Virus genome (UHGV): UHGV-0178365
DNA length: 42,064 nucleotides
DNA from: a virus
Reading direction: 5' to 3' (one strand)
Both the position numbers and the translations under genes were made by a program. This document shows, piece by piece, positions 1,030 through 42,064 of this stretch; the stretch's first letter is position 1; each line of letters begins with the position of its first letter. Below the pieces are notes generated by a model, which worked only from the letters and a program-made list of their open reading frames with translations, was not told the DNA's origin and did no database searches.

Positions 1030-1032
1030 TGC

Positions 1033-2559: not shown

Positions 2560-2568
2560 GGGGCGCCC

Positions 2569-3995: not shown

Positions 3996-4016
3996 CCGTC
4001 GATCACCTCGCAGCCA

Positions 4017-9353: not shown

Positions 9354-9357
9354 GCGC

Positions 9358-11848: not shown

Positions 11849-11851
11849 CGC

Positions 11852-20873: not shown

Positions 20874-20977
20874 CTTGCCAGGCGCGTCACACGGATGCGC
20901 CCCGCCGGAGGGGGACGGCGGGGCGCGAAGAGGAGGGTGCCGACACGTCGTCGGCACGTTGCATGATGGGGGAGATG

Positions 20978-21883
20978 TCACCCCAGCGAGCGCACGAGAG
21001 CCCGCTCCCTGTCGGACAGCTCCCATCTGCACGCCGATGCGCGCTCTGCTGCGGCGCGCTCTGCTGCGGCGCGCTCTGCTGCGGCGCGCTCTGCTGCGGC
21101 GCGCTCTGCTGCGGCGCGCTCTGCGCGCTCATGGTGCCCCGCCGCCTCGTCCGACAGCAGCAGCCCTCCTCCGTAGATCCTCTTCCCGGCTTCGCGCTGG
21201 GCGTCCAGGGCGCTCACGCGCGCGCAGTCTCCCGGCTTGACCTCCAGGCGCACGCCGTACTTGGCGTACTTCCCGAGCATGGCCGCCGTCAGCACGTGGC
21301 TCGGATACGAGTACTTCGGGAGCCGCTGCCTCTCCTTCGACCGCCTCTCGTCCTGGACGCGCTTCACGGCGCGGAATAGGTCCGGCGCTGTCTCCGCCAC
21401 GTTGTCGCCGAACGACGTGACGAACGAGGTGCGCACGACTGCGCCGTTGTGGTACTCGATGTCGCAATCGGCGAACACGTGGTTCGTGCGCATGCACGTC
21501 TTCGCGCCGCTGAGCGCCGTCAAGGCCGGGGCGAACAGGAAGAAGCCGATCCCGCGGTCCAGGTAGAACTCGCATATCTTGGACAGGATCGAGAACGGCG
21601 GGTTGTCGAGCACCGTGCAGCCCTCCGGATAGTCGAACGACTCGTAGTCGCCTCCTGGCCAGAACGGGCGCACGATGCCGCTCGGATCGATACCGAACCG
21701 CTCGCACGCCCAATCACTCACGCAGTCGTAGACGTCGGGAGGGGTGTAGCAGTCGTCGGTGGTCTTCTTCGGCTTGAACTTCTCCACGAACCCGTCGTAG
21801 TCCTCGAACAGGTGCTTCTGCTTGCTTGTCGACGCCATGGCCCTCCTATCGCCTCGCTTCGTACGGCGGCGATTGTCCGCCAC
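20978..21883 (-). CDS. Phage Dam-like DNA N6-adenine methyltransferase carrying a C-terminal (ERAAA)x5 repeat
   Basis: TVLDNPPFS (motif IV, N/DPPF/Y). Upstream segment CYTPPDVYDCVSDW. The repeat is encoded by the 15-bp tandem array. Confidence 0.6.
   Translation of the reverse strand: MADNRRRTKRGDRRAMASTSKQKHLFEDYDGFVEKFKPKKTTDDCYTPPDVYDCVSDWACERFGIDPSGIVRPFWPGGDYESFDYPEGCTVLDNPPFSILSKICEFYLDRGIGFFLFAPALTALSGAKTCMRTNHVFADCDIEYHNGAVVRTSFVTSFGDNVAETAPDLFRAVKRVQDERRSKERQRLPKYSYPSHVLTAAMLGKYAKYGVRLEVKPGDCARVSALDAQREAGKRIYGGGLLLSDEAAGHHERAERAAAERAAAERAAAERAAAERAAAERASACRWELSDRERALVRSLG
21041..21130 (-). repeat. Tandem repeat: GCGCTCTGCTGCGGC in 5 perfect copies plus 1 partial; 15-bp, in-frame
   Basis: Seen directly in sequence. 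Encodes ERAAA repeats in the MTase frame and QQSAP in another frame. Confidence 0.9.
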
Positions 21884-26677: not shown

Positions 26678-28324
26678 TTAGGCTCCGAGCCGGAGCGTCG
26701 GGACGCGCGCCGCGCGCGCTTCCCGGCTCGGCTCGTACGTCGCCGGGTCGATGCTCGCCGGAGTGCGCCATCCGTTGGCGGCGATGCGGCTGATGAGCGC
26801 CGACGCCTGGTCCATCGTCCACTCGCCGACGCGGCGGAACCCGCGTCCCTCCAGCTGCCTGATCTGCTTCGGGGTCGCCAGGCCCTCCGCCCGGCGCTTG
26901 GCTATCTTGTCCATCAAAAGCGACGCCTTGCCTGCGCACCCGATCTCGTCGGGGCAGATGCCGGCCTTCTCCAGCGCCTCCTTCTGCGCGTCGCTCGCCG
27001 GTGCCATCTCCCAGGCGAACTGCGGGACGTAGCCGGTGAGGTCCTCGGACGCTATCGACATCTCGAACTGCAGCGGGTCGACGAGTTTGCGCTTGCGCTT
27101 CCGCATGGACTCCAGCTGCTCGGCGAGCGCCCGCTCGCGCTCCTCCACGACGTCCTTGGCCGCCTCGCGCTCGACCTCCTCCAGGTCCTCGGGGCAGCCG
27201 GCCTGCTCCAGGCGCTCGGTCATGGCGCGGGCCACGTCCTCGCTTTCGGCGATCAGGTGCGCCGGCCGGCACAGCTCGTGGCGCTCGACGTGCCAGAGGA
27301 AGTCGAGCAGCAGCAGCTCCGTCTTGCCCGTCTCGGGGCTCAGGCGCGTGCCGCGCCCGACCATCTGGCAGTACAGCGAGCGCACCTTGGTCGGCCGCAG
27401 CACCACCACGCAGTCAACGCTCGGGCAGTCCCAGCCCTCGGTGAGCAGCATCGAGTTGCAGAGCACGGCGCCGCCGCCGGCCTCGTCGAACGCCGCGAGC
27501 GTCTCGGCCCGGTCGGCGCTCTCGCCGTTGACCTCCATTGCGCGGAAGCCCTTGGCCTCCAGGATCCCGCGGAACTTCTGCGACGTCTTGACGAGCGGGA
27601 GGAAGACCACCGTCTTGCGCTCCGCACACCCAGCCGCCAGCATCTCGTCGGCGATGCGCTCCAGGTACGGGTCGAGCGCCGTGCCGAGGTCGCCGGCCGA
27701 GTAGTCGCCCGACTGCGTGCGCACTGCGGCCAGGTCGATGGCCAGCGGCACCGTCTGCGCCTTGATGGGGCAGAGGTAGCCCTCCTTGATGGCGCGCGGA
27801 AGCGTGTACTCGTAGGCGATCGAGTCGAAGTAGGCGCCCAGGTCCCGGCGGTCTCCCCGGTCGGGCGTGGCGGTCACGCCGAGCACGTCCGCCCCGTCGA
27901 ACCAGTCCAGCACCGCCTGGTAGCTGGCCGACAGCGCGTGGTGCGCCTCGTCGACGATGATCGCGTCGAACCAGTCATGCGGGAACCGCTCGAGGCGCGA
28001 CGGCCGCATCATCGTCTGCACGCTGCCGACGGTCACGCGGAACCACTCGCCGACGCTCGTGCGCTCGGCCTTCTCCACGCTGCAGCCGAGGCCCGTCGCC
28101 TTGCCGATCTTGTCGGCCGCCTGGTCGAGCAGCTCGCCCCGGTGGGCGAGGACGAGCACGCGCCCGCCCCCGTCCACCACGTCCTTGGCCACCATCGCGA
28201 ACACGATGGTCTTGCCGCACCCGGTGGGGAGGACGAGGAGCGTCTTGGCGCGCCCCTCGTCCCACTCGCGCTCTACCGCCCTGCGCGCCTCCTCCTGGTA
28301 CGGCCTCAGATCGACCGCGCCCAT
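26678..28324 (-). CDS. SF2 DEAD/DEAH-box helicase
   Basis: LVLPTGCGKT (motif I), IIVDEAHH (motif II), GVTATP (motif III). Start MGAVDL overlaps the upstream stop. Confidence 0.8.
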   Translation of the reverse strand: MGAVDLRPYQEEARRAVEREWDEGRAKTLLVLPTGCGKTIVFAMVAKDVVDGGGRVLVLAHRGELLDQAADKIGKATGLGCSVEKAERTSVGEWFRVTVGSVQTMMRPSRLERFPHDWFDAIIVDEAHHALSASYQAVLDWFDGADVLGVTATPDRGDRRDLGAYFDSIAYEYTLPRAIKEGYLCPIKAQTVPLAIDLAAVRTQSGDYSAGDLGTALDPYLERIADEMLAAGCAERKTVVFLPLVKTSQKFRGILEAKGFRAMEVNGESADRAETLAAFDEAGGGAVLCNSMLLTEGWDCPSVDCVVVLRPTKVRSLYCQMVGRGTRLSPETGKTELLLLDFLWHVERHELCRPAHLIAESEDVARAMTERLEQAGCPEDLEEVEREAAKDVVEERERALAEQLESMRKRKRKLVDPLQFEMSIASEDLTGYVPQFAWEMAPASDAQKEALEKAGICPDEIGCAGKASLLMDKIAKRRAEGLATPKQIRQLEGRGFRRVGEWTMDQASALISRIAANGWRTPASIDPATYEPSREARAARVPTLRLGA

Positions 28325-28851
28325 CACATCTCGTAGGACGAGTGCGGGCGCGGAGCCGCTTGCTGCGGGGCGACCGGCAGGCTCGTCTGCTCGGGCGCGG
28401 CGGCCTGCTGCTCCGTCGGCCATTCGCACGGCTTGAGGTACGCGTCGATGTCGTTGGCCTGCCGGGTCTCGCCGTTGGACTGGTAGTCGCGCACCTTGAT
28501 CTTGACGTATCCCTGCTTGCCGACGGCCGCGTTCCAGTCGACCCGCACGCCGCCGGTCTGGGGGTCGCGGCCGAAGCCCAGCCCTTCGAAGAAGCGGGCG
28601 ATCCGCCATGCCATCTTGGTGTTGAGCATGAGACGGTCGACGACGGGCGCCCACCCCTGGCTCGTCCACACGTTGAGGGTCACCTTCGCGCGGGGGCACG
28701 CCTCCATCTTGTCGGAGCCCTCGAAGCGCTCGCGCTCGATCTTGGCCACCTCGAAGGCGTACGTTCCGGCGGGGAGCAGCGTGAACCCTCCGTCGTCCAC
28801 GACCTCGGTCACGTCCCAGTCGAGCGCCTGGCCCTTGTCGTTATCTGCCAT
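28324..28851 (-). CDS. DUF669-like phage protein (often paired with Sak4)
   Basis: Position and size. Gln/Pro-rich C-terminal tail. Confidence 0.4.
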   Translation of the reverse strand: MADNDKGQALDWDVTEVVDDGGFTLLPAGTYAFEVAKIERERFEGSDKMEACPRAKVTLNVWTSQGWAPVVDRLMLNTKMAWRIARFFEGLGFGRDPQTGGVRVDWNAAVGKQGYVKIKVRDYQSNGETRQANDIDAYLKPCEWPTEQQAAAPEQTSLPVAPQQAAPRPHSSYEM

Positions 28852-28865
28852 GTTTCAATCCTCTC

Positions 28866-30068
28866 TTAGATCTTTGTCATGTCCGGAGCGCCGAACGGTA
28901 CGGGCTCCGCTTCCTCGCGAATCGCTTTGATGTTGGCCACGCACTTGTCCCACTGCGCGACGATGCCGCCGAGCACGTAGTCCTCCGGATAGTTCTCGAC
29001 CGGGGTGTCCGGCGTGAAATGCCTCCTGTAGACTGCGTTCGCAACGATGTCGTCCAGGGTCACGCCGTCGCGCTCCATCAGCTGCAGCGCGGGAGCCCAG
29101 AAGTCGGGCAGGCCGGCCGCCTTGGATTTCGCCGTGTCGCTCACGACGCTGCCGTCGTCCGCGAACACGATGCTCTGCACCGGCTTCGGCGCAGCCGGCG
29201 CCGCCGGGGCAGGTGCCGCGGCTGCGGGGGCCGTCGGCGCGGCGGGGGCGGTCTTCGCGGGCGGCGCTGCCGGGGCAGCCGGGCGTGCGGGGACGGAGGC
29301 GCTCGCCGCCCGGACCCTGGACGCGGCCGGAGCCGCCGGCACGAACGCGGCGATCTGCGCGAAGTCGAGCGGCACCTGGGGCGGCAGGTCCCAGCGGTTC
29401 TTCGCGTCCCAGCAGGCGTGGTGCTGGGCGTGCAGCACCCGCTTCTGCCCGCCGCGCGCCTTGCCCTTAGAGCCCTTGCCCTCGCCGACGACCTCGACGA
29501 TCGTCTCGTAGTTGGCGAACAGCACGGCGTCGGCCCACTCCTTGGCCTTCGCGGCGTTGGACATCTTGGCCGCGTCGATGAGCGCGAGAGCCCACCGGTT
29601 GTAGCTCGCGGCCTCGTCCGGCTGGTCGAACTTGCGGACCGCGGCATGCGCCGTGAGCACCACGTTGACTCCGGCCTCGGCCACGTCGGAGAGCAGGTTG
29701 AGGAGCTTGCCGAACTCCTCCACGACGAACGTGTAGCCCTTGCCGTAGCCGGGATCCTCGATGCTCTTCCAGCTCTTCTCGTCGCATACGTGGCGGATCG
29801 CCAGCTGCTCGGCCCAGTCGGCCGTGTCGATCACGAGGGTCGCGCAGGGCCTGGTCTCCTTGACCTCCCGCACCTGGTCCAGAAGCATAGGCCAGCTCCG
29901 CGGCGTCTCGGTGCGGGCGACGTCGTAATGCTCGGTCGATCCCTCCGTGTCGATGAAGAGCGGGTCGGGGAACTTCGCCGCGAAGGACGTCTTGCCCACG
30001 CCCTCCGGCCCGTACACGATCACCTTCTGGGCCTTCGGCACGGCGCCGCGCGTGATGTTGAGCGCCAT
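28866..30068 (-). CDS. Sak4-like AAA_24 recombination ATPase with a Pro/Ala-rich linker
   Basis: VIVYGPEGVGKTSFAAKFPDPLFIDTEG N-terminus is characteristic of AAA_24. Confidence 0.65.
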   Translation of the reverse strand: MALNITRGAVPKAQKVIVYGPEGVGKTSFAAKFPDPLFIDTEGSTEHYDVARTETPRSWPMLLDQVREVKETRPCATLVIDTADWAEQLAIRHVCDEKSWKSIEDPGYGKGYTFVVEEFGKLLNLLSDVAEAGVNVVLTAHAAVRKFDQPDEAASYNRWALALIDAAKMSNAAKAKEWADAVLFANYETIVEVVGEGKGSKGKARGGQKRVLHAQHHACWDAKNRWDLPPQVPLDFAQIAAFVPAAPAASRVRAASASVPARPAAPAAPPAKTAPAAPTAPAAAAPAPAAPAAPKPVQSIVFADDGSVVSDTAKSKAAGLPDFWAPALQLMERDGVTLDDIVANAVYRRHFTPDTPVENYPEDYVLGGIVAQWDKCVANIKAIREEAEPVPFGAPDMTKI

Positions 30069-31448
30069 CTACATCACCCACTTGTCGGCTGGGAGGAGGA
30101 TCGGGACGCGCGCCGGCTCGTTCGCGTCCGTCCGGACGGTCGGGGCGTCGGCGAACTCGGGAGCGCGCTCGGCCGCCTGTCCGAGTTCCGCGCCGCCGTA
30201 TCCGTCCTCGATGACGATGGAGCATTCGCCGCCGGTGGACACGCGGGTGGCGATCACCTGCAGGCCCTCGCCCTCTGCCCACTCGCCGAACTCGCGCATG
30301 GTCTCGGCGTCCATCTGCTCCAGCTTGTCCACCAGCACGAACCCGCACTCCGGCTTGAGCTTGCGCACGATGGCGGTGGCGACGCGCAGCTGCTCGGACC
30401 CGCTCATGCAGTCCCACCTGCGGCCCTGGTAGGCCAGCAGCCCGTTCTCCACGGCGAGTCCCGGCAGAGGCAGGTCGGCCCCGTCGAGCAGCGCCATCTT
30501 GGACGCGCGCACGGCCTCGATCCGCTCGGTCATGTCGTCGTACTGCTCGGCCAGCTCCTCGGCCTCGCGCTCGGCGTCCGCGCGGCGCTGGTTGTCGCGC
30601 ACCTTGGCGTTGACCGCCTCGATCCGCTCGAGCTGCGCCTCGATCTCGGCTGTGGATTCGTCGTGCAGCTGCTCGGCGGTCTTGCTCGCGACGCCGAAGT
30701 CCTCGACCGACTTGAGGTACTCGACGTTGAGCGCGGCGCGCTCCGACTTGAGCTCGTCGATACGGCGCGTCAGGTCGGCGAGCTTGTCGCGCATCTGATC
30801 GCACCGGGCCTCGATGTTGCGCGCCTCCTCGCGCTTGCGCTGGTTCTCGCCGTTCCTCGCGAGGATCTCCTGCTGCGCCTGGATCAGCTCCATGGCGCTC
30901 ACGGGCTCGGTTGGGGCGTCCGGGTGCATGGGCATGTCGGCCGCCGCGCCCTTCTTCTGGTCGCGCATCTGGCCGACGCCGGTGCGCCGGTTGTAGAGCG
31001 CCTGCTCCTCGGCCTCCAGGCGCGCGAGCTCCTCGCCCACGCCGATGATGCCGAGCAGCGTCTTGGCCTTGTCCTTATCGCTCATCGCCAGGAACTTGGG
31101 AAGGTCGAGGGCGAGCGACTCGACGAACGAGTCCAGCAGCTGCTGGCCGCCCTTGCGCCCCTCGGGGTCGGTCACCTTGAGGGAGCCGGCCTTGCCCCTG
31201 CGCTCCACCACGATGCCGTTCGACAGCTGCACCTTGAGGTGAGGGTCGGTCGCGCTGCCCGCGCGCTTGGCCTCGCTCGGGCGCTTGCGGTCGCCGCCGA
31301 GCGCCCAGGCGATGGCGTCGAGCACGCTGGTCTTGCCCTGGCCGTTGCGCCCGCCGATGACGGTGAGCCCGCTCTCGGCCGGCTCCAGCGCCACCGCCTT
31401 GACGCGCTTGACGTTCTCGACCTCCAGGCTGTTGATCTTCACGGTCAT
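30069..31448 (-). CDS. SMC/SbcC/RecF-like AAA ATPase
   Basis: Walker A GRNGQGKTS, central coiled coil, signature-like MSGSEQ, Walker B VLVDKLEQMD. Confidence 0.6.
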   Translation of the reverse strand: MTVKINSLEVENVKRVKAVALEPAESGLTVIGGRNGQGKTSVLDAIAWALGGDRKRPSEAKRAGSATDPHLKVQLSNGIVVERRGKAGSLKVTDPEGRKGGQQLLDSFVESLALDLPKFLAMSDKDKAKTLLGIIGVGEELARLEAEEQALYNRRTGVGQMRDQKKGAAADMPMHPDAPTEPVSAMELIQAQQEILARNGENQRKREEARNIEARCDQMRDKLADLTRRIDELKSERAALNVEYLKSVEDFGVASKTAEQLHDESTAEIEAQLERIEAVNAKVRDNQRRADAEREAEELAEQYDDMTERIEAVRASKMALLDGADLPLPGLAVENGLLAYQGRRWDCMSGSEQLRVATAIVRKLKPECGFVLVDKLEQMDAETMREFGEWAEGEGLQVIATRVSTGGECSIVIEDGYGGAELGQAAERAPEFADAPTVRTDANEPARVPILLPADKWVM

Positions 31449-31449
31449 G

Positions 31450-32730
31450 CTACTCCTCCTCGTCTTCGTCGTGCGCCAGCGCGGACTCGCACAGGCTCTT
31501 CAGATCTATGTCTGCCGCGGTCGGCTCGTATCCGTCGGCTGCCAAGGCGGCGAGCCAGCCGAGGAAGCGCTCGACGTTCGACGCGTAGCATGGGCACCTG
31601 CCGTCCACGAGGGCATCGGAGATCCACGGATACAGCTCAGCATTGCCGGCGGCCATCATGTAGCCGTAGGCTGCCAGCCGGGGGCAGAACATGCCGTCGA
31701 CCTCGGTGCCGGTCGCACTCTCGAACTTGCTCACCTTCTCGCCGATGCCGCCGTATCCGGACAGCGCCGCGTCCTCGACCACCTCCATGACGCAGGGCAT
31801 GGACCCGAGGTCTTCGATGCGCGCGTGGAACCAGGCCAGGTGCGCGGCCTTCGCGGCTTCGATCGACTCCTTGACCTCGTCGACGCGGCGCTTCCGCTCC
31901 ACTTGCTCCGGATCGACCCTCTCCTCGTCGGCGGAGACGGGCTTGCAGATCTCGATCGCAGGTCCCGTTCCGGATTCGAGGATGTACGCGGCGCAGCCGT
32001 CGATCCCGGCGACCGCCTGCGCGAGGGCGTCGGGATCCTTCACGTCCTCGCACCACGACCACCCATCCTGGCTGTACAGGCGCTTCTCCGAGATCGCGAC
32101 TCCCGCGTCCTCGCATGCGCGGACGAGCGCGGCGCGGCGCTCGTCGCGCTGCATCCGCTGCCGCTCGGCTTTCGCGACGTCGCGCCATTCCTCCTCGCGG
32201 CAGCTCGTCAGCTTCTCGACGGCGGCGCCATCGCCGAGCTCCTCGAACTCGGCGATGGCCAGCATGCGGTCGAGGGTCATGTCGTCGCCGGCGTCGTCCA
32301 CGGCGGCGCGGGCGCGGCGCAGCTTGGCGGCGGCGCCCTTCGGCATGCGCCCGGCGCGCTCCACGCGCTCGGGATCCACGCCGAGCAGCAGCATCTGCTG
32401 CACGCCCCGGCTTCGCTCCACGTCGGTCAGAGGGCGCTTGTCGTCCGTGGCCACCATGGCGACCATCGCGTTCGCCTCGTCCATGTCGTCGCATACGACG
32501 GCATGGCAGCGGGCGAGCTTGTTCTTGCACATGGCCTTGTAGCGGCGCTCGCCGTCGACGATGCGGTAGATCCCGCCGTCCTCGACGACCACGATGGGGT
32601 TCACCGGCTCGCCGGGGTTGAGCGCGTTGAGCATGCAGCTCTCCGCGAGCGCGGCGATGTCGCCGAAGTCCTTGCGCGGATTCTTCTCGTCGGGGTACAC
32701 GTCGTCTATGCCGATCTCGCGTAATTCCAT
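31450..32730 (-). CDS. ParB-like nuclease domain protein
   Basis: N-terminal IVDGERRYKA (ParB/Srx GERR motif). Confidence 0.55.
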   Translation of the reverse strand: MELREIGIDDVYPDEKNPRKDFGDIAALAESCMLNALNPGEPVNPIVVVEDGGIYRIVDGERRYKAMCKNKLARCHAVVCDDMDEANAMVAMVATDDKRPLTDVERSRGVQQMLLLGVDPERVERAGRMPKGAAAKLRRARAAVDDAGDDMTLDRMLAIAEFEELGDGAAVEKLTSCREEEWRDVAKAERQRMQRDERRAALVRACEDAGVAISEKRLYSQDGWSWCEDVKDPDALAQAVAGIDGCAAYILESGTGPAIEICKPVSADEERVDPEQVERKRRVDEVKESIEAAKAAHLAWFHARIEDLGSMPCVMEVVEDAALSGYGGIGEKVSKFESATGTEVDGMFCPRLAAYGYMMAAGNAELYPWISDALVDGRCPCYASNVERFLGWLAALAADGYEPTAADIDLKSLCESALAHDEDEEE

Positions 32731-32770
32731 ATATCCTCCTCTGACTAGGTAAAACGTTGAAAAGTAACAC

Positions 32771-33331
32771 TCATTTCGATTTTCTGGGATTGGTGCCCAA
32801 GACCTCTCTCATCCGTTTGAGCCTGGTCTTCGCCGCGTTGTAGGGCAGCAGCAGCCTGCGGTGCTCCCACTCCTCCAGGGCGAGCAGGTAGGCCGTCTCG
32901 GCCTTGTCCCGCTCGTAGCGGCTCACGGGGCAGCTCTCACGCCTCTTCGGCCTGGGACCGAGGGACGAGGGGCGCGTGCCGCGCTTGGCCTCCTGGTCGT
33001 CGTAGGCGGCCCTTTGCCGAGGGGTCATCGATGCGTACACCTCGACGCACGCCGCCTCGCGGCCTGCGAGCTGCTCGCGCATCCGGCAGACGCGGCATCG
33101 GCCGTCCTTGTCGACGGCGGAGCGCCATCCGGCACACTCGTCGCACCATACGAGCCGGGTGCGGCAGCACCTCAGAGACAGGCCCAGGCGCTTGGCGGCC
33201 ATCTTGACGGCTCCGCTCGAGCGCTTGAGCTCGCGGCAGATGTCGCGGCGCGGGAGTCTGCCGGCCATGTCGCGCAGCCGGTCGATCTCGTCGGTCGTCC
33301 ACGGCCTCTGGGCCGAGCCCTTGCGCGTCAT
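32771..33331 (-). CDS. GcrA-like HTH DNA-binding protein with a Cys cluster
   Basis: WTTDEIDRLRDMAGRLPRRDICRELKRSSGAVKMAAKRLGL resembles the GcrA N-terminal domain. Start at M63 of the track ORF. Confidence 0.4.
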   Translation of the reverse strand: MTRKGSAQRPWTTDEIDRLRDMAGRLPRRDICRELKRSSGAVKMAAKRLGLSLRCCRTRLVWCDECAGWRSAVDKDGRCRVCRMREQLAGREAACVEVYASMTPRQRAAYDDQEAKRGTRPSSLGPRPKRRESCPVSRYERDKAETAYLLALEEWEHRRLLLPYNAAKTRLKRMREVLGTNPRKSK

Positions 33332-33714
33332 CGCGCGACCGCGCCCTTCGCGTGCCGCCAGCTGCGCGCCTCGGGGCGGCGCCCCGTGATGTCGGCGAAC
33401 ATGATCTGCAGCCATGCGGTGCCCGCCTGGCTGTCGAGCGCCTCGACGTACTGCGGGTGGATGCGCCATGCCAGGGACGGCTCGTCCATGACGAGCATGC
33501 GGCTCAGGCACGCCCAATGCGCCATGGCCATGGGCACGGAGATCATCGTGACCACGGGGGTTCCGGCGTCGGTCGTGCGGGCGATGCGCTGCACGTCGAG
33601 CTTGAGCGCGTCGTAGTTGGTGACGGCGGGGTTGACCATGGACGGCCTCTTGGCCCAGGCGACGGCCTCCTCGGCGGCCTGCACGGCGGGATTGCGCTCC
33701 ACGCCTACCACCAC
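33328..33714 (-). CDS. Hypothetical early protein
   Basis: ATGA coupling to the downstream gene. Confidence 0.3.
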   Translation of the reverse strand: MVVGVERNPAVQAAEEAVAWAKRPSMVNPAVTNYDALKLDVQRIARTTDAGTPVVTMISVPMAMAHWACLSRMLVMDEPSLAWRIHPQYVEALDSQAGTAWLQIMFADITGRRPEARSWRHAKGAVAR

Positions 33715-33814
33715 CCCTGGACGAGGCCCTGGGCGGCGACGACGATGATCGCGTACACGGCGGTGATCGCGGCGCCCAGGAACAGGAGCTCCGCGCGCGT
33801 CTTATCGTCCAGCC

Positions 33815-34135
33815 TCATGCGATCCCCGCCTTGCGCAGCAGCCATCCGGGCAGCTCGCTGACGATCACGCGGTACACGCTCTTGCCAGTCTTGAAACCCG
33901 GAAGGCGCTCGCTCGGGTTGGCGATCTTGCTCTGGCCGTGCAGGTAATCGTACGACAATCCGGTAAGATCGGCGGCTTCCTGCAGCGAGCAGGTCAGACG
34001 AGGGGACGCGGTTTCTGGCGGCGCATTCTTGATATCGTTGCCAGGTTTGGCTTCGATGGCTTGCATGTGGTATCCTTCCTCTTCGATGGCGGGCGTTCCT
34101 GCCAGGGATTGCCGCCCGCGATTGTCTGCGGCCAT
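33815..34135 (-). CDS. HTH_17 / excisionase-like DNA-binding protein
   Basis: LTCSLQEAADLTGLSYDYL...GKSVYRVIVSEL. Start may be the internal MQAIEA. Confidence 0.45.
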   Translation of the reverse strand: MAADNRGRQSLAGTPAIEEEGYHMQAIEAKPGNDIKNAPPETASPRLTCSLQEAADLTGLSYDYLHGQSKIANPSERLPGFKTGKSVYRVIVSELPGWLLRKAGIA

Positions 34136-34139
34136 GGCT

Positions 34140-34496
34140 TTACGCCGTGGCCTTTTTCGTCACCACGTAGCCCGGCAGGCGCATGTCCACGGCGGTGACG
34201 GAGCTCCCGTCCGCGCACGCGGCGTGCAGGGTGGCCTTGCAGGATCCGGTCGCCTTGCGCAGGACGATCTCGCGAACCTCGCGGCCGGCGCCGCCCTCCA
34301 GCGTGCCGATCTCGTCGCCCACCGCGACGGGCGTCCCGTACGCGTCGACGATCCCGATGCGCTCGCACGCCTCGACGGCGTCGACTATCACGGACGACCT
34401 CTCGGGCTTGCTGGACAGCCGCGCCTCGATGCGCGCAACGGCCTCTTTGAGATCCTCGAACTCGGCGAGGGTCGGGTATTTCCTCGGTGTCGTCAT
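34140..34496 (-). CDS. Hypothetical early protein
   Basis: First ORF of the early leftward operon. Confidence 0.35.
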   Translation of the reverse strand: MTTPRKYPTLAEFEDLKEAVARIEARLSSKPERSSVIVDAVEACERIGIVDAYGTPVAVGDEIGTLEGGAGREVREIVLRKATGSCKATLHAACADGSSVTAVDMRLPGYVVTKKATA

Positions 34497-34598
34497 GATT
34501 CACCTCCTTTCGCTGATCGGCGAACTTCGCGTTTCGAATAACCCGGAGGACGGCAGCGTGGTACGATGCGGCTTGGCTTGCGAGAGGGGGTGATTTTG

Positions 34599-34835
34599 AT
34601 GGAGAGCTTTCAATCGTTTCTCGATCATATCGACATCGATCAGCTGAGCGATTCGGTTATGAACGACAGCGAGGCTGCTGTTCGCCTTTCTCAAATTGCT
34701 CTGGGAGGCGAGCGGCCTGAATCATCTTCGCTGCAAGATGCACGGATGGCTTCAGCTTTTGCGACCCCGACGGTTCTGGGGATACTGGGGCTGTACCATG
34801 AGTGGCTTTGCGTTCAGCTGGAGCAACGGGGGTAG
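34599..34835 (+). CDS. Small hypothetical protein (MESFQSF...)
   Basis: Strong RBS GAGAGGGGGTGATTTTG before the ATG. Convergent with the cro-like gene; a hairpin lies between them. Confidence 0.35.
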   Translation: MESFQSFLDHIDIDQLSDSVMNDSEAAVRLSQIALGGERPESSSLQDARMASAFATPTVLGILGLYHEWLCVQLEQRG

Positions 34836-34965
34836 GGATTGTACGCGGGTGCTCGATGCCACGCTTGCCCGCGCGAATCCTCTCTATTGATCCCATGGCG
34901 GCTCCTTTCGGCTGCCGCCTTCCGGGCTATTCGATTCTCAAAGTTCATTACGTTAAAAGTAATTT

Positions 34966-35190
34966 CTAGTGCAAAAAAATATCGTTGACAGCTTCCAAAA
35001 GAATCGGTTTAGCAACATCGGACATTTCTCGATAGAGCAAATCCAATTCCCCAAGGCGCCAGGTAGAAGGATTTCGCTCTCTTTCTAGATAGGTTGGCTT
35101 TGCAATATGGCAGATAGTAGCAGCTTCTTCCGATGATAGTCCCGATGCCTTTCGCGCTGCCTCGAACTTTCCAATGACGGGCATGACCAC
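34966..35190 (-). CDS. Cro-like HTH (XRE family) regulator
   Basis: 74 aa, divergent from the cI-like gene, in an AT-rich regulatory region. Confidence 0.5.
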   Translation of the reverse strand: MVMPVIGKFEAARKASGLSSEEAATICHIAKPTYLERERNPSTWRLGELDLLYREMSDVAKPILLEAVNDIFLH

Positions 35191-35298
35191 CTCCTTTCAA
35201 CGAAAGCAGCTTATCATTACAATACGTTAAACGCAATATAAAATTATTTAAATGTATCTAACGCATGGTAAAATGCATTTAACGAAAGGTGGTATGAA
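35191..35298. promoter_or_regulatory. Divergent cI/cro promoter-operator region
   Basis: AT-rich. Palindrome AAATGCATTT. Repeated ACGTTAAA motifs here and at 34958. Confidence 0.45.
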
Positions 35299-35973
35299 AT
35301 GGGTGTTGCTGAGAACATAGACGCCTTGCTTGTAAAGTTCGACATTACAGCTGAAAGCCTCGCGAGAATTGCAGGTGTCCAGCCTCCTACTGTATCTCGA
35401 TGGCGTCATGGAGCGATGCCGCGCGAGGAGCCAATCAATAGAATGGTTGAGTATTTTGGTTTAGAACGTGACGATATTGTTTCGGATGCTTTTGGACTCG
35501 CCGCAAAGGAACATGGGCGTGTCGGCATACCAACCATTAAGCCTGCTTACTCGTACCACGTTGTCCCGATGCTGGGTAATGCTGCAGCAGGAGAGTGGCG
35601 AGAGGTGTACGAGCAGCACGGCGAGGCGGTTACCATCCCCGACGAGTTCGCGGAGAGCCACCCTCGCGCTTTCGGAGTCAAGCCGGCGGGGTCGAGCATG
35701 GATCTTGTATTTCGCGACGACGAGATCGCGATTTGCGATCCCGATATGGAGGTGCGCGACGGGAGCGTGGCGTTGGTCGGCGTCAACGGGGACGAGGCGA
35801 CGATAAAGCGCGTATTCTTCGCCGGCAACACTATCGTCTTGCATGCTGAGAGCACCATGGCCGACGAGTACCCGGACATAGCCATCAACACAAAGGATCC
35901 GGCTTCGCCGCCCGTGCACCTCATCGGCGAGATTTTTTGGAAGACGCTTCCGGCGAGGCCGATTAAGTTCTAG
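35299..35973 (+). CDS. CI-like repressor: N-terminal HTH plus C-terminal S24 LexA-like peptidase domain
   Basis: QPPTVSRWRHG HTH. GSSMDL (Ser) and TIKRV (Lys) catalytic dyad spacing. AAGEW cleavage-site-like region. Confidence 0.8.
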   Translation: MGVAENIDALLVKFDITAESLARIAGVQPPTVSRWRHGAMPREEPINRMVEYFGLERDDIVSDAFGLAAKEHGRVGIPTIKPAYSYHVVPMLGNAAAGEWREVYEQHGEAVTIPDEFAESHPRAFGVKPAGSSMDLVFRDDEIAICDPDMEVRDGSVALVGVNGDEATIKRVFFAGNTIVLHAESTMADEYPDIAINTKDPASPPVHLIGEIFWKTLPARPIKF

Positions 35974-35989
35974 GCGAAAGGAGAGGGTT

Positions 35990-36823
35990 GTGAAGAAATC
36001 AATTGCATCCATAGCGGGGTTTTTGCTCGCCGCTTCACTGTTGGGATGTGCTCAGAGCGACATCGATGTCCCGGATGTTGTCGGGCAAAAGGCCGACGAT
36101 GCAAAGGATGTCCTGATGGATTCCGGGTTTTATAACGTGGACATGGTTGAGGAGGACGGCGATGCCGCGTATGTGGCCGCTGCTTACACCGTTGTCGGCC
36201 AAAGCCCCCAAGCTGGGGACAAGTGCACTGCGTCCGATACCGTCACATTGACGGTGCGAAACGATGCGGAAGCCAAGGCTGCGGAGAAAAAGCAGGCTGA
36301 CGCCGCTGCCGAGGCGATGCTCGACGAAATGGAGGGGAGCCCCGCTGCCGAAGCGTACGATGCGCTAACTTCGGATGGCTATTCCGTCGAGGTGCTTCAT
36401 GCCGTTTCGAAGCAGGATTATTCCAGCGAGATCAATACTGGTGAAACCGAATGGCTCGTCTCTGGGTACGACGGGCTCAACGCCGATAAGAAGAGAGTGA
36501 CGATCCTTGTTGACACGCGGGATGGCATCGACCAGAGGGCTGCCAACGCCGCCGTCCGGGAAGTCCTTGACGGGAAGTTGCCGGTCTCCAATGCATGGAC
36601 GGCCGTCAAGAGCTACGGCAAGCAGCAGTATCCATACGGGTTCAAGCTGCACGACATCATGGGCGTTCTGGCCGAAACGGCCCAGGACGAGAACACGTGG
36701 TTTTTGAAGGCCACGTGCGACGTGACGAACGAATACGGAGCCAAGGCGAAAGATCTTGTGTGTGAGGCTGAGGTTGCCGGCACTAAAGATAGCCCCGAAG
36801 TGATTTCGTTCACGGTGTACTAG
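35990..36823 (+). CDS. Lipoprotein with a PASTA domain (lysogeny-expressed moron; superinfection-exclusion candidate)
   Basis: Signal peptide plus lipobox LLGC. PASTA: VPDVVGQKADDAKDVLMDSGF...VVGQSPQAGDKCTASDTVTLTV. GTG start with AGGAGAGGG RBS, 17 nt after the cI stop. Confidence 0.6.
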   Translation: MKKSIASIAGFLLAASLLGCAQSDIDVPDVVGQKADDAKDVLMDSGFYNVDMVEEDGDAAYVAAAYTVVGQSPQAGDKCTASDTVTLTVRNDAEAKAAEKKQADAAAEAMLDEMEGSPAAEAYDALTSDGYSVEVLHAVSKQDYSSEINTGETEWLVSGYDGLNADKKRVTILVDTRDGIDQRAANAAVREVLDGKLPVSNAWTAVKSYGKQQYPYGFKLHDIMGVLAETAQDENTWFLKATCDVTNEYGAKAKDLVCEAEVAGTKDSPEVISFTVY

Positions 36824-36825
36824 GC

Positions 36826-37089
36826 TTGTTCCGAATCACGAAGATGGGAAATGAAATGTGCGAATACTGCGAAGACGGCAGAAGGCTGATCGATAAAGAC
36901 AAGGCAGGATCAGGCGCTGAGGTGTGGATCGAGGCAGGGCGCTTGGTGGTGCGCAGCGAATGCGAATGCGGATCGAGCTCCACGGTCATGTCGAACCAGA
37001 TCAAGGTTTGCCCGATATGCAAGCGGGATCTGTCCGACGATCATCTTTGGCGCGAGTTCGACCCGTACGCCTGGCCTGGATTGAAGTAA
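36826..37089 (+). CDS. Small zinc-ribbon protein
   Basis: CEYCEDG...CEC...CPICK. Confidence 0.3.
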   Translation: MFRITKMGNEMCEYCEDGRRLIDKDKAGSGAEVWIEAGRLVVRSECECGSSSTVMSNQIKVCPICKRDLSDDHLWREFDPYAWPGLK

Positions 37090-37159
37090 GGCCGGTAAAT
37101 AGCGCAGCCCCGACTATCTTGGCGGACGGCGGGGCTGCAGCCTAACCTGACGGAAAGGC

Positions 37160-38473
37160 ATGGTGAAGTATACCATGAAGCGCAAGAGGTACCAGCTGGA
37201 GCCGCTCGACGATGGCCCAAGGGAGAAATGCCGGCATTGGGGGATCCGCGTGTCGTGCGGCCACGATCCGGCGACGGGGAAGCGCCTGAGACCTTACGAG
37301 ACGTTCGAGGGCACGGAATACGAGGCCGATCTTCGAGCCATGGCCATAAAGGTCGAGCACGGAATCGTCGAGACCACGTCCATGACCGTGGCCGAGTACT
37401 TCGTCGGCATGTACCTGCCGTGGGCGAAGAGCCGCGTCAGAACTAAATCGTACGAAGGCGGGCCGCGCGACAAGAGTCTGATAACTCGCGAGACCTATCG
37501 GGGGTACGAGCAGACCGCCAGGCTCCACATCATCCCTCTATTCGGCCATATCGGCTTGTCCGACCTCAAGCCATACTACGTCGAGCAGAAGCTGGCCGAG
37601 ATCCCAAGCCTCGGCTCCCGCCGCAACGCCTACAAGCTGTTGAGGCAGGGGTACCGCAGGGCGGTCAAATGGCAGCTCCTGCAGTTCGTCGTCACGGACG
37701 CGGTAGAGGAGCCGACGGCCGATCCTGTCGACAAGCCCACCGTCAAGTCGGCAGAAATGTGGGATTACATAGACGCGTTCGACGAGCCCGGAGACGAGGA
37801 CGTGCGCATGGCCGTTGCCATCGGGTTCGGCATCGGGCTCAGAAGGTCGGAGATCGCTGCCATCGACAAGGAGGAGATCGACTGGACCGTCGACACCGAG
37901 GACTTCCTCGGCGCAGTGAGGATATGGCGCTCGTACCATTTTCGTAAGGGAGAGGGGTGGTTTGAGCCGCCGAAATCGTTCACCTCGGCGAGAACGGCTT
38001 ATTTCCCGCGATGGCTCGGCGAGCTGTTGCAGCCTCACGCCGAAGGGTCGGGGCCTCTGCTCGAGCACAAGGGCGAGCGCACGAAGCCGGATCGCATCAC
38101 CGACCGGTGGAAGGACGTGGTAGCGAAGAAGGGGCTCCCGGTGGTCATGCCTTTCAAGAACACGCGGCATTCTTGCGGCACGATCCTCGTGCGCGAGGAC
38201 GGTCTGCCGATCACCGACGTGCAGCAGCTCCTCGGCCACAGCACGCCGGTGATCACGTCGACGTTCTACGTCCAGCGCGGCACCGAGTCGACGGAGCGCG
38301 CCGCCGCCGCGATGAACAAGAGGGCGAAACCCGTTGTCCCAGATTGTCCGAAACCCCCCGAAAACGCCGGATCGCAGCCGGATGATAATTATGGCGATAA
38401 AACGAAAAAGAGCGTTTCACCTGGTAGTTTCAAGATCATCAGACCTGATTTCAAACGTGCTTCGAACGGGTAG
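37160..38473 (+). CDS. int: Tyrosine integrase (phage integrase family)
   Basis: 437 aa. R...HxxR (RHSCGTIL)...Y (TFYVQ) catalytic region. Adjacent attP-like site. Confidence 0.85.
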   Translation: MVKYTMKRKRYQLEPLDDGPREKCRHWGIRVSCGHDPATGKRLRPYETFEGTEYEADLRAMAIKVEHGIVETTSMTVAEYFVGMYLPWAKSRVRTKSYEGGPRDKSLITRETYRGYEQTARLHIIPLFGHIGLSDLKPYYVEQKLAEIPSLGSRRNAYKLLRQGYRRAVKWQLLQFVVTDAVEEPTADPVDKPTVKSAEMWDYIDAFDEPGDEDVRMAVAIGFGIGLRRSEIAAIDKEEIDWTVDTEDFLGAVRIWRSYHFRKGEGWFEPPKSFTSARTAYFPRWLGELLQPHAEGSGPLLEHKGERTKPDRITDRWKDVVAKKGLPVVMPFKNTRHSCGTILVREDGLPITDVQQLLGHSTPVITSTFYVQRGTESTERAAAAMNKRAKPVVPDCPKPPENAGSQPDDNYGDKTKKSVSPGSFKIIRPDFKRASNG

Positions 38474-38489
38474 GGCAAACTTAAAATCT

Positions 38490-38532
38490 TCCGGCTTCGG
38501 CCTTGCGGGTTCGAGTCCCGCCGCCCCTACCA
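38490..38532 (+). other. attP-like core: 3' fragment of a tRNA/tmRNA (T-arm GCGGG-TTCGAGT-CCCGC, acceptor 3' strand, CCA)
   Basis: gcgggttcgagtcccgccgcccctacca. No matching 5' acceptor strand upstream, so not a full tRNA. Confidence 0.5.
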
Positions 38533-38541
38533 AGAACGATG

Positions 38542-38585
38542 AACAGGGGAAACGTTAAGGATATCAAAACGTTTCCCCTGTTGTT
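38542..38585. terminator. Perfect 15-bp stem hairpin (AACAGGGGAAACGTT / AACGTTTCCCCTGTT, 11-nt loop) followed by TTGTT
   Basis: Seen in sequence, immediately after the att core. Confidence 0.6.
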
Positions 38586-38596
38586 CAAGACGGCCT

Positions 38597-38645
38597 ATTG
38601 TCCGAAATTGTCCGAAGTGCGCGTAAATTGTCGCCAATTGTCGGG
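38597..38645 (+). promoter_or_regulatory. Four direct repeats of ATTGTC(C/G)G; candidate integrase arm-type binding sites
   Basis: attgtccgaa, attgtccgaa, aattgtcgcc, aattgtcggg. Confidence 0.4.
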
Positions 38646-38648
38646 AAA

Positions 38649-39032
38649 TTACGCTAAAAACTCGCTGCGCACCCACCCTTCCGCTCTGTACAAAACGCGG
38701 CACCATTCCCCGTCGCGCTCGAGCACGTCGCATTCTGCGCCGCGGGGCAGGACGTGGATCACGTTGCCGTTCTGCTCGTCGCGCATGTTCAGGCCGTGCG
38801 CCGCCGATACGACGGCTCGGTCGTGACCGATCTCCTCGGACTGCTCGCCATCGTCGGAACCGTCCCAGGCTTGCGGAGAGTCGTTCTCGGCTGCCGTTTC
38901 GGCCTTGTCGGCATGCGTCTGCGATTCGGTCGCATGCGAGGCGTACAGCGTCTCCAGCTCGGCCAATTTCGCATCCTTGCCGTACTCCACGCCCATCTCG
39001 TCCAGGATCCGCTTGATCTCGTCTTTGGTCAT
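38649..39032 (-). CDS. Hypothetical protein with a C-terminal SH3-like / cell-wall-binding region
   Basis: Acidic N-terminus. Ends GWVRSEFLA. Downstream of the endolysin. Confidence 0.35.
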   Translation of the reverse strand: MTKDEIKRILDEMGVEYGKDAKLAELETLYASHATESQTHADKAETAAENDSPQAWDGSDDGEQSEEIGHDRAVVSAAHGLNMRDEQNGNVIHVLPRGAECDVLERDGEWCRVLYRAEGWVRSEFLA

Positions 39033-39041
39033 GCCAGCTCC

Positions 39042-40034
39042 TTACAGTCTAACCAGCCGGGCGCGGAACGCCGACACCATGCCGCCGTTGCCAGCGTAGT
39101 CGTCCCCGCATCCGCTCGTGTCGTCGAGGTCGATCATGTCGGCCAGGAAGCCCTCTCCGACGTTAGCCACCGAGTACTCGATGCCGAGCCACCCGGTCGC
39201 GTCGGGATCCTGCGTCTCGTAATAGCAGCGCACCGCCGTGATCGGTGAGCCGTCGCCGGCACAGCCGTCCTCCAGGTCGTTGATGTCGTACTTGTTGACG
39301 CGCGGCAGCCAGCCTTGACGCTGCGTGCGCACTTGGTACCACCCCGGCATATCGATGGCGAGATACAGGATCGGCGATCCGTCGCCCGCGTAATCGTCTC
39401 CGGAACCGCCCGTGTCGGTGTGGTCGACCATCTCCGGCAGCACCCCGTTGGCGGTGCGGACGCGGTAGCGCAGATCGGGGATGCCGACGGACGGGGCGGG
39501 GGAAGGGGCGGGAGAAGGAGCCGCGCCGCCGCCCATCTCGTCGTACCAAGCCTGGGCGCGGGCCATGTACTCCGCGTTCTGGCTGCGCTGAAGCTCGCCG
39601 GGGCAGTCGGTCGCCGACCAGTGGGAGTGAGGGAACACGTTCACCAGCCACTCCGGACGGCCAAGGCCGTACTTGCGGCAGATCGCCGCCACGAGGTGCG
39701 CGCCCTGGTCGAGCACGGTGTCGTTGACCGTCCACGGCCCGAACTGGTTGTTGGCGTGCTCGATGCTGATGGTGTTGCTGTTCGCCCACGCGTTGGCGCA
39801 CGCCCAGGCGGTGTCCCAGTCGTTGACCAGCTGGCCGATGGTGCCGTCCGCCTGCACCGCGTAGTGGGCGGACGCCTCGCGCGTCTGCCACGTGCTGTAG
39901 CAGCCGTCGATGCTCAGGTTGCCGCCCATGTGGTGGATGGTCACGGCCTTGATGGAGCCGTTGCGACCCGGCGTGTAGTGCTTGGTTAGGATGCGTTCGA
40001 CATCCGCGTTGAGGCCGATCCAGTCCATGGTCAC
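39042..40034 (-). CDS. Endolysin: N-acetylmuramoyl-L-alanine amidase (Amidase_2/PGRP) plus three C-terminal GDDYAG cell-wall-binding repeats
   Basis: N-terminal amidase_2-like region (AVTIHHMGG, SIEH). Triple repeat TGGSGDDYAGDG / CAGDGSP / SGCGDDYAGNG. Confidence 0.7.
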   Translation of the reverse strand: MTMDWIGLNADVERILTKHYTPGRNGSIKAVTIHHMGGNLSIDGCYSTWQTREASAHYAVQADGTIGQLVNDWDTAWACANAWANSNTISIEHANNQFGPWTVNDTVLDQGAHLVAAICRKYGLGRPEWLVNVFPHSHWSATDCPGELQRSQNAEYMARAQAWYDEMGGGAAPSPAPSPAPSVGIPDLRYRVRTANGVLPEMVDHTDTGGSGDDYAGDGSPILYLAIDMPGWYQVRTQRQGWLPRVNKYDINDLEDGCAGDGSPITAVRCYYETQDPDATGWLGIEYSVANVGEGFLADMIDLDDTSGCGDDYAGNGGMVSAFRARLVRL

Positions 40035-40297
40035 TCCTCCCGCTCTTCCGCCGTGCGCATCTTGTGATAGCCTTCAAGCTCCCATACCTTGTCTCGGACG
40101 CGTCCCATGCAGATTTTCGCGCCTAGATCGCGGTCGTAGTTCTCTGGGTCGATGCACGCCGAAGTCTCGGTGACGATGAAGCCGCACGGAAGCTTCGCAT
40201 GAACCACGGTCATGCAGCCGAAACGATCTTCGACCGTGATCTCGGCTGCTGCCAGGATCGAGTCGACCTGCTCAGGGAACACCCGGTTGTCATTCAT
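40031..40297 (-). CDS. Hypothetical protein in the lysis cassette
   Basis: 88 aa between the holin and the endolysin. Confidence 0.3.
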   Translation of the reverse strand: MNDNRVFPEQVDSILAAAEITVEDRFGCMTVVHAKLPCGFIVTETSACIDPENYDRDLGAKICMGRVRDKVWELEGYHKMRTAEEREE

Positions 40298-40299
40298 GT

Positions 40300-40530
40300 C
40301 TACTCCTTGTCTTTGAGGCTATCCAGCACCTTCTGCGCGTCCTGGGCGGCCTCGGTCATGTTGTTGTTGCGCCACCAGGCGACGACGGTCGTGCCGATGG
40401 CAAGCACCGCCGCCACGGCCCCTGTGAGCGCGTCGGGGTCGATCGCGCCGAAGGTGATGGCGAACACGAGGCCCAGCGCGCCCAGCGCCACCGCCAGGGT
40501 GCCGATAGCCTTGATCTGCTCCTTGTTCAT
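40300..40530 (-). CDS. Holin (two transmembrane segments)
   Basis: Start MNKEQIKAIGTLAVALGALGLVF. Two hydrophobic helices. The upstream part of the track ORF is discarded. Confidence 0.55.
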   Translation of the reverse strand: MNKEQIKAIGTLAVALGALGLVFAITFGAIDPDALTGAVAAVLAIGTTVVAWWRNNNMTEAAQDAQKVLDSLKDKE

Positions 40531-40544
40531 TCCTGCTCCGATCT

Positions 40545-40883
40545 CTAGATGTTTATGCCGAGATGAGTTGCCACGATCCCGACCACGAACGCCAGGACCG
40601 CCGTGAGGGCGTAGTTGACGACGCTGTCCCATCTCTTCGCGGGCGCGGCCTCCAGAGCCGCTATGCGCTCCTCGGCGGCCGTCTGCCAGGCTGTGTTGGC
40701 CTCTTGTATCGCGGTGAGCCTGACAACGCACTCGCGCAGCTCGTCGATCTCCCCGCCGTGCGCCTCGAGGCGCTTGTCGTGCAGCGCGATGGCCCGCTCA
40801 TGGGCCGAATGCTCGAGGCACTGGTCCAACCGGATCACCTCCTGTCGTGTACGCCGCTTTCCGTCTGCGCCATAGTCCCGCAC
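40545..40883 (-). CDS. XhlA-like lysis-associated membrane protein (coiled coil plus C-terminal TM)
   Basis: C-terminal hydrophobic VVNYALTAVLAFVVGIVATHL. Confidence 0.4.
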   Translation of the reverse strand: MRDYGADGKRRTRQEVIRLDQCLEHSAHERAIALHDKRLEAHGGEIDELRECVVRLTAIQEANTAWQTAAEERIAALEAAPAKRWDSVVNYALTAVLAFVVGIVATHLGINI

Positions 40884-40976
40884 GAGTCACCTGATCCCGG
40901 AAAATCCCAAGCGCGCTTATGATTGGAAACGCGCGAAAAGCGCCTGGGATTTTTGAGTCGAAAAGGAGCCGAGCCA

Positions 40977-41875
40977 TGAACATCGCGGAGATCTACGAGA
41001 GCCACTACCTGCCGGAGAAGTCGAAGAAGCGCCGCCCCTCGACCGTGGCGGGATACGACAGCTCGGTGCGCCTCCACGTGCTGCCGAGGTGGGGTTCGTG
41101 CGAGATCGAGGACATCGATCCCGACGACCTGCAGGAGTGGGTGGACGGGTTCGATCGTGCCGGCGCCGCCGAGAAAGCCTACAAGTGCCTGCGCCAGATC
41201 GTGCGGTGGTGGATTAGGGCAAAGCGCCTGCATATCCCCGATCCGACCCTCTACGTCGAGCTGCCGGCGAAGGAGCCGTACCGTCCCGACGTGCTGGACG
41301 CGGAAGGCGTCACGGCCATGCTGCGCGGCATGTGGGGCCATGCCATGGAGGCCGTTGCCATCTGCTCCGTGACGATGGGGCTCCGGAGGGGCGAGGCGTG
41401 CGCGCTCACGTGGGGGGACATCAATCTCAAAACAGGCGAGGTTCGCGTGAGCAAGTCGCGGCAGTGCGTGGGCGGAGAGGTCGTGACCGAGGGCACGAAA
41501 ACCGACAAGTCAACGAGGTCATGCTACCTTCCCAGGTTCGCCATCAACCGCTTGCGCCAGATCAGGGGCAAGGGCCTCATCACCGGAGACGTGTCGCCCG
41601 ACAAGGTTGCGCGCTCGATCAAGTCGTGGTGCAAACGCATGCGCCTGCCGCACGTCAGCATGACCAATCTGCGCCATACCTGGGCGACGCTCGCTATAGA
41701 GGCCGGCATCGGCATCGAGACGGTCGCCATGATGCTAGGGCACACCGACATATCGACGGCGTACGACCACTACATAGTCCCGCGCCGCGCTATCTGCGTC
41801 GCCGCTCAGGACGCCGTGGAGACTCTGCTGGTCAAGAGCGCGGGCAAGCCAAGGAAGATGCTGCTGGCCGCATAG
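40977..41875 (+). CDS. Small tyrosine recombinase (XerC/D- or Rci-like, 299 aa). Its TAG stop is the first 3 nt of a repeat copy.
   Basis: LRHTWATLA (HxxR) and LGHTDISTAYDHY (catalytic Tyr). Has the N-terminal core-binding domain but no phage-integrase arm-binding N-terminus. Confidence 0.8.
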
Positions 41876-41889
41876 TTTTCCGTATCCCA
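41873..41889 (+). repeat. Copy 5 of the 17-bp repeat (TAGTTTTCCGTATCCCA, one mismatch)
   Basis: Match to copies at 60, 378 and 1013. TAG is the recombinase stop. Confidence 0.7.
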
Positions 41890-41908
41890 TATACAATCCG
41901 GCAGGCTG

Positions 41909-42064
41909 ATGGTCATGTCGAGCGCTAAAGCTGTAGTCGAGAAACGCGTCGATTTCAAAACGCCTTTTTCCGATGTACCCGTTGTGGTCGTCAACGCAAA
42001 CTCGGCAACGCCAAACGACGTTGACGTCAACGCAGGGAGCGTGGACGCAAACGGATTTAGTGTG
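41909..42064 (+). CDS. 5' part of an ORF running off the window end (possible fourth cassette ORF)
   Basis: ATG at 41909. The open frame reaches the last base of the window. Confidence 0.2.
   Translation, partial: MVMSSAKAVVEKRVDFKTPFSDVPVVVVNANSATPNDVDVNAGSVDANGFSV

Follow-up and report, generated by a model that had tools for sequence, protein, structure and literature searches.

Very probable recovery of an Eggerthella lenta clade 1-type phage genome as one closed unit, in a virus record opened inside a cassette of its tail-fibre shufflon

Organization of the locus at the record ends

The virus genome UHGV-0178365 is a record of 42,064 bp with a GC content of 66.5%, and this whole stretch is called the window below. 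Its right-hand end carries an integrase, an attP core, a lysis cassette and rin, the gene for a tyrosine-family DNA invertase, while its left-hand end carries a tail-fibre gene together with alternative C-terminal cassettes (Rv), and both ends of the record fall within one of these cassettes. A first-pass annotation, made from the letters of the window, had claimed that the record contains a complete phage genome of about 42 kb in circularly permuted form. The features that bear on this claim, listed in the order in which they follow one another when the ends are joined, are:

37160-38473, plus strand: integrase, a 437-aa tyrosine recombinase (Pfam Phage_integrase)
38479-38532, plus strand: attP core of 54 bp, equal to the 3' part of the host tRNA-Leu(TAA) and common to attP, attL and attR
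40976-41875, plus strand: rin, 299-aa tyrosine-family DNA invertase (Phage_int_SAM_3 and Phage_integrase)
41873-41889, plus strand: rix site 5, a 17-nt repeat overlapping the rin stop codon
41890-42064 and 1-57, plus strand: Rv cassette A, an H-type lectin C-terminus of 234 nt with its stop TAG at 55-57, split by the record ends
60-76, plus strand: rix site 1, 17-nt repeat
77-380, plus strand: Rv cassette B, whose stop is the TAG of the next rix site
378-394, plus strand: rix site 2, 17-nt repeat
395-758, plus strand: Rv cassette C, followed by a degenerate, apparently inactive site at 756-772
772-1012, minus strand: Rv cassette D, with a weak H-lectin match, in the same invertible segment as C
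1013-1029, minus strand: rix site 3, a 17-nt repeat right after the stop codon of the current tail-fibre gene
1033-1327, minus strand: Rv cassette E, the currently expressed C-terminus, part of the tail-fibre gene
1328-1344, minus strand: rix site 4, a 17-nt repeat inside the tail-fibre gene at the C-terminus fusion point
1033-1848, minus strand: current full-length tail-fibre/receptor-binding gene of 271 aa, made of the constant part Rc (1345-1848) and cassette E

The 17-nt repeat TAGCTTTCCGTATCCCA had five matches in the window, against 0.03 expected by chance. The window contains exactly five perfect copies of its 12-nt core TTCCGTATCCCA, all of them in the shufflon locus and in frame; this core is longer than the 8-bp repeat given in published work. 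Apart from the sites within the tail-fibre gene and after its stop codon, every rix site stands ahead of a cassette, which usually takes its stop codon from the TAG of the following repeat. Rin matched the SAM_3 and catalytic domains only and shares about 29% identity with the 437-aa integrase; its length and domain matches suggest that it lacks an arm-binding N-terminal domain. For the tail-fibre gene, the ATG at 1848 with the ribosome-binding site GGAAGGAG was a better start than the GTG at 2049. Alignment of cassette A with cassette D by BLASTP returned nothing, the cassettes being too diverged for such a comparison.

Adjacency of the two record ends

A 30-mer spanning the junction 42064|1 was matched exactly in 3 IMG/VR contigs, and a 60-mer spanning the same junction was exact in all 13 fetched loci that carry the recombinase. 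Among these loci, L094 is an integrated prophage on a 240-kb host contig (GCA_046992205.1). Window positions 38479-42064 aligned to 7504-11089 of L094 and window positions 1-1339 to 11090-12428, and the two window ends abut at 11089|11090 with zero gap and zero overlap, with the cassettes in the same order as in the window. The last and first bases of the window are adjacent in nature.

The distribution of genes over the two ends was as the first-pass annotation had described it. The late operon on the minus strand ends at the tail fibre (1033) and no lysis gene lies in 1-1033, while the lysis cassette, also on the minus strand, sits at the opposite end beside the attP-like site and the integrase, as confirmed with Pfam, PHROGs and the comparison of att sites. 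The gene order predicted for the joined ends, namely tail fibre, cassettes, recombinase, lysis and att, is the one seen in integrated prophages. Joining also places repeat copy 5 (41873) 251 bp from copy 1 (60); this spacing, composed of the 17-nt site and the 234-nt cassette, recurs in other genomes.

The junction restores a gene as well. The open reading frame (ORF) starting at 41909 is open to base 42064 and, with the ends joined, terminates at TAG 55-57 after 70 aa, in agreement with the earlier prediction. The joined ORF is identical to the gene called at 10934-11146 of L094, and the same 70-aa gene is present in other genomes. It matched Pfam H_lectin over positions 2-67 of the 67-position profile with 27.9 bits (cutoff 24), and this full-length match requires the 18 residues encoded by window positions 1-54. 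Cassette A was found uninterrupted and 100% identical in 13 other loci. Rather than at a biological end, the record starts and stops at an arbitrary point within Rv cassette A, a point probably set by the assembler. "Circular permutation" here refers to the way the sequence record was opened and is not a statement on virion DNA.

Intact attP and completeness of the unit

In the window, the integrase is followed by the 54-bp core and then by the lysis genes. Core boundaries were set by comparing attL (L094), attR (L085) and the window. The attP of the window is intact, with P arm, core and P' arm, and at each integrated end one arm is replaced by host DNA. When the right-hand 4 kb was searched against GenBank phages with blastn, we obtained only partial endolysin matches (Eggerthella and Propionibacterium phages) and a tRNA-Leu match, the latter of which pointed to attP. 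Neither ARAGORN on the window nor Rfam on 38300-38800 found a tRNA, as expected for a 3' tRNA fragment.

The assembly-collection listing held the exact integrase protein in 2241 blocks and the exact Rin protein in 4221 blocks. Host genes, e.g. polyprenyl synthase and aconitase, come after the integrase in 10 listed places in long host contigs, and in 10 listed places in such contigs the DNA ahead of the SH3 and endolysin genes contains host genes, together with a complete tRNA-Leu(TAA). By megablast, integrated copies matched 100% of the window at an identity of at least 95%, with matches ending at 38479 and 38532. L094 accounts for window positions 38479-42064 and 1-9492, L106 for 7713-29173 as one 99.4% alignment, and L085 for 27159-38532. 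Flanking host DNA, for which a check at both ends had been proposed, is absent from the window, and the matches of integrated copies end at the att core. Full coverage by matches that end at the core indicates that the 42,064 bp of the window make up exactly one excised unit, free of host DNA.

The integrase-attP module is block-swapped between otherwise near-identical phages (window 37178-38658 versus L001 253-1707, and L097 and L100-L102). One type of this module targets tRNA-Leu(TAA), as in the window, and the other targets tRNA-Leu(CAG) and has different host flanks (TraX, Rce1-like).

Swapping of the integrase/att and endolysin modules between strains makes the relatives mosaic, a pattern that would also be compatible with two related phages having been fused by the assembler at a common sequence. 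We regard such a chimera as extremely improbable, because single integrated copies (L094, L106 and L085) match long stretches at 98-99.9% identity to either side of the junction and of attP, with no breakpoint signature seen.

Alternatively, the source of the unit could have been a double lysogen, with two prophage copies in tandem, or a concatemer formed in replication or packaging. An intact attP and the 42064|1 adjacency would look the same in a head-to-tail repeat, which sequence alone cannot separate from a monomeric circle; moreover, phages package from concatemers, and the terminase large subunit (TerL) is of the Terminase_3 type, which is not decisive for packaging mode. However, exactly one unit with neither overlap nor gap is what circular closure trimmed to unit length gives, and in the 20 integrated copies listed, host genes lie past either the integrase or the lysis genes. 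We consider a tandem or concatemeric source improbable, and the content and order of the genome are the same either way.

Three points weigh against a closed unit. There is no terminal direct repeat or overlap of at least 8 nt between the window ends, whose sole common 12-mers are the rix cores, so circularity is not readable from the window by itself. A scan of IMG/VR with the 30-mer made of the integrase end and the core gave no match, which indicates that the source contig and this integrase type are absent from IMG/VR. Finally, integrated relatives are 0.7-1.2 kb shorter than the window, with attL-to-attR distances of 41,375, 40,826 and 40,984 bp in three host records; the extra length would fit the variable regions (HNH gene and endolysin modules). 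In the GenBank phage collection, blastn with the joined 3.3-kb junction region also found no match.

Based on the junction mers, the abutting alignments, the intact attP and the full coverage, the claim of a complete genome of about 42 kb, circularly permuted in its record, was borne out. It is very probable that the window is one complete unit of a temperate siphovirus-like Eggerthella lenta phage of the "clade 1" type known from the literature, excised and closed into a circle. Recombination of attL with attR by the integrase would have released the circle from tRNA-Leu(TAA); alternatively, the DNA may derive from replicating or packaged phage. With the circle closed, an annotator may treat the genome as complete, and the fifth tail-fibre cassette, split by the record ends, should be annotated across the origin.

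Natural isoforms of the tail-fibre shufflon

Twelve complete loci, drawn from L081-L083 and L094-L103, were compared with the window, giving 13 arrangements. The four invertible segments (A, B, the C-D pair and E) appeared in 11 different orders or orientations among the 13, and segments were always joined at the 17-nt sites. Cassettes were 97-100% identical between genomes, almost all of them 99.7-100%, and each of the five was found adjoining Rc, as the expressed C-terminus, in some arrangement. The fusions to Rc are predicted to measure 250 aa (A), 274 aa (B), 294 aa (C), 253 aa (D) and 271 aa (E). Tail-fibre genes called in ten integrated prophages had 250, 253, 271 or 274 aa, and in each of these ten the called length corresponds to the cassette that adjoins the constant part in that genome. 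For example, in E. lenta APC055-529-1D (CP089331, L100) an inverted cassette A adjoins Rc and forms the expressed C-terminus, and the called tail-fibre gene has the 250 aa predicted for the Rc-A fusion. Cassettes C and D were never separated in the 12 loci, which fits the degenerate site at 756.

The anatomy of the locus and the natural isoforms suggest that Rin catalyses inversions between oppositely oriented TTCCGTATCCCA cores. Inversion at the internal site would swap the receptor-binding C-terminus, joining any of the five cassettes to the constant N-terminal part, and inversions at the other sites would reshuffle the silent cassettes. The invertase belongs to the tail-fibre shufflon and should not be taken for a stray second integrase.

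Two loci showed further features. After the window order A B C D E, L094 carries at 12434-12734 a second, inverted cassette B adjoining the constant part, making six cassettes; this extra copy may be genuine, or it may have been produced by short-read assembly of mixed isoforms. In L083, an IMG/VR provirus, window position 41722 is joined to 552. We rejected this join as a non-rix rearrangement; it is a scaffold gap with a single N at position 544, and one piece beside the gap is in inverted orientation.

Many short-read contigs of metagenome-assembled genomes (MAGs) end about 20 nt after rin, near the first rix site (e.g. L001, L004 and L005), and L001 ends 3 nt beyond rix site 5. Contig ends at this place indicate that heterogeneity of the shufflon fragments assemblies there, which accounts for the breaks directly behind rin in short-read assemblies of this prophage, a common one in the gut. 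Such ends also lend some support to the view that the window is an integrated prophage whose linear contig broke at the shufflon, its ends only seeming to match and sequence possibly missing between them. Unlike the breaks of those MAG contigs, however, the window's own break is not at a rix site. It lies inside the invariant cassette A, 175 nt past one rix site and 59 nt short of the next; the window lacks none of the five cassettes known from other loci; and it carries no host DNA and has an attP in place of attL or attR. We therefore give a broken linear contig almost no credence, and the excised, closed unit remains our preferred reading.

Over 3.2 kb, L001 and the window have 99.9% identity, but L001 sits in a bin named "uncultured Collinsella sp.", possibly by a mistake in the binning.

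Other gene modules of the phage

Outside the shufflon, the following genes were assigned:

38649-39032, minus strand: SH3_3-domain protein, the last gene before attP (domain match)
39042-40034, minus strand: Amidase_2 endolysin (domain match)
40031-40297, minus strand: small protein of the gp49/gp66 family (domain match)
40300-40530, minus strand: holin (phrog_263; Holin_SPP1 on an identical gene)
40545-40838, minus strand: XhlA-like membrane protein, "hemolysin" (phrog_937)
35299-35973, plus strand: cI-like repressor (helix-turn-helix, HTH, and Peptidase_S24)
34966-35190, minus strand: possible cro-like HTH protein (weak HTH_3 match)
19185-21032, minus strand: TerL (Terminase_3)
17713-19173, minus strand: portal protein (PHROGs/Pfam)
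11852-12748, minus strand: major capsid protein (PHROGs/Pfam)
5858-8731, minus strand: tape measure protein (PHROGs/Pfam)

The minus-strand late genes also include a minor head protein, a scaffold protein and minor tail proteins (PHROGs, Pfam), and the mid-genome replication genes encode a primase/helicase, a helicase and Sak4-like, SMC-like and ParB-like proteins. All modules are thus present: lysogeny, replication, packaging, head, tail, tail fibre with shufflon and invertase, and lysis. The XhlA-like protein had no Pfam match and was assigned by PHROGs. A look-up of the exact TerL protein gave no match, probably because gene callers picked another start, and the portal protein was looked up instead. 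The first-pass annotation had placed a cro gene between the repressor and the replication genes. The ORF at 34966-35190 does match HTH_3, but with E = 0.009 the match is below the Pfam cutoff, and the cro assignment is weak.

Several regions differ between strains or stand out in the gene map. The endolysin module is mosaic: the window (39042-40297) has Amidase_2 and the gp49-family gene, and L095, L096, L099 and L103 (8321-9322) have in the same slot an Amidase_3 with choline-binding repeats. Within the head module, a 423-aa HNH endonuclease gene at 13768-15039 is shared with L106 and L107 and looks like a mobile or homing insertion; its slot is filled by other small genes in L104, L105 and L081, which contributes to length variation between strains. 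A PASTA-domain protein of 277 aa (35990-36823, plus strand) lies between the repressor and the integrase and is kept in all integrated copies seen; it may be a moron expressed during lysogeny.

Rin homologues in other Coriobacteriia

Homologues of rin with 57-75% identity were found in Collinsella aerofaciens ATCC 25986 (L028, 10865-12044), Olsenella uli (L034, 10846-11669) and Enteroscipio rubneri (L002, 8146-9046). Downstream of these genes lie direct and inverted copies of the nearly identical core ATTCCGTATCCC and, encoded on the other strand, a homologue of the tail fibre. Rin and its crossover site thus seem to be conserved across genera of Coriobacteriia beyond Eggerthella. We see about an even chance that the same Rin system, with the core (A)TTCCGTATCCC and a place between lysis and tail-fibre genes, is a class-wide host-range switch of Coriobacteriia phages, and that the window records the excised form of the E. 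lenta phage in its source sample. If true, this would extend Rin beyond the two genera in which it has been described.

Comparison with known systems

The element is already known: it adds no biology to what has been published on the clade 1 prophages of E. lenta and on the Rin shufflon. Clade 1 prophages measure 41,092-42,159 bp, have 66-67% GC and integrate at one of two tRNA-Leu genes (PMC8778435, Microorganisms 2022). The 42,064 bp of the window fall within this range, in line with the typical siphovirus genome size that had been noted for it. Downstream of their tyrosine recombinase lies a "Rin shufflon" in which ttccgtat repeats accompany small H-lectin Rv genes, and circularisation was demonstrated for the clade 1 prophage 14Aphi1 by attP polymerase chain reaction (PMC8778435). 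Examples of the clade are 1001095IJ_161003_H5phi1, MR1_12phi1 and APC055-529-1Dphi1, and two of the loci are named clade 1 members, L100 (CP089331, APC055-529-1Dphi1) and L101 (JADMOT010000003). The window agrees with clade 1 in size, GC content, tRNA-Leu integration, Rin shufflon and H-lectin Rv genes. Its 54-bp attP core is identical to the one published for 1001095IJ_161003_H5phi1 (Table 3 of PMC8778435), the Rin protein is 100% identical in CP089331 and JADMOT010000003, and the cassettes are 97-100% identical. Unlike the clade 1 prophages, it is excised and circular rather than integrated; its order A B C D E represents one of many isoforms, and in its endolysin and HNH regions it has a particular choice of mosaic variants.

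The first description of a Rin system came from the Bifidobacterium prophages Bb423phi1, Bl157phi1 and Bl30698phi1 (PMC6109161, Sci Rep 2018). As in the window, a tyrosine-family invertase separate from the integrase flanks tandem Rv cassettes (PMC6109161), and short asymmetric rix sites lie upstream of the cassettes, with one within the receptor-binding protein (RBP) gene and one right after its stop. Inversions between genomes are likewise shared, with all possible full-length alleles observed. The rix core is TTCCGTATCCCA in the window and TTCCCTAACCC in Bifidobacterium, the host class differs, and the cassette fold is an H-type lectin in the window, whereas TP901-1-like RBP heads are found in Bifidobacterium.

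Exchange of the C-terminal part of a phage tail-fibre gene by site-specific inversion is also the principle of Min (p15B), Gin (Mu) and Cin (P1), and Min resembles the window further in having multiple segments. In contrast, Gin, Cin and Min are serine invertases, whereas the recombinase of the window belongs to the tyrosine family and is not a serine recombinase. The shufflon of plasmid R64 (Rci, sfx and pilV) likewise uses a tyrosine recombinase and multiple segments, some of them with two opposed C-terminal cassettes like C and D. The R64 system differs from the shufflon of the window in that it is plasmid-borne, acts on a pilus adhesin rather than a phage tail fibre and has an unrelated site sequence.

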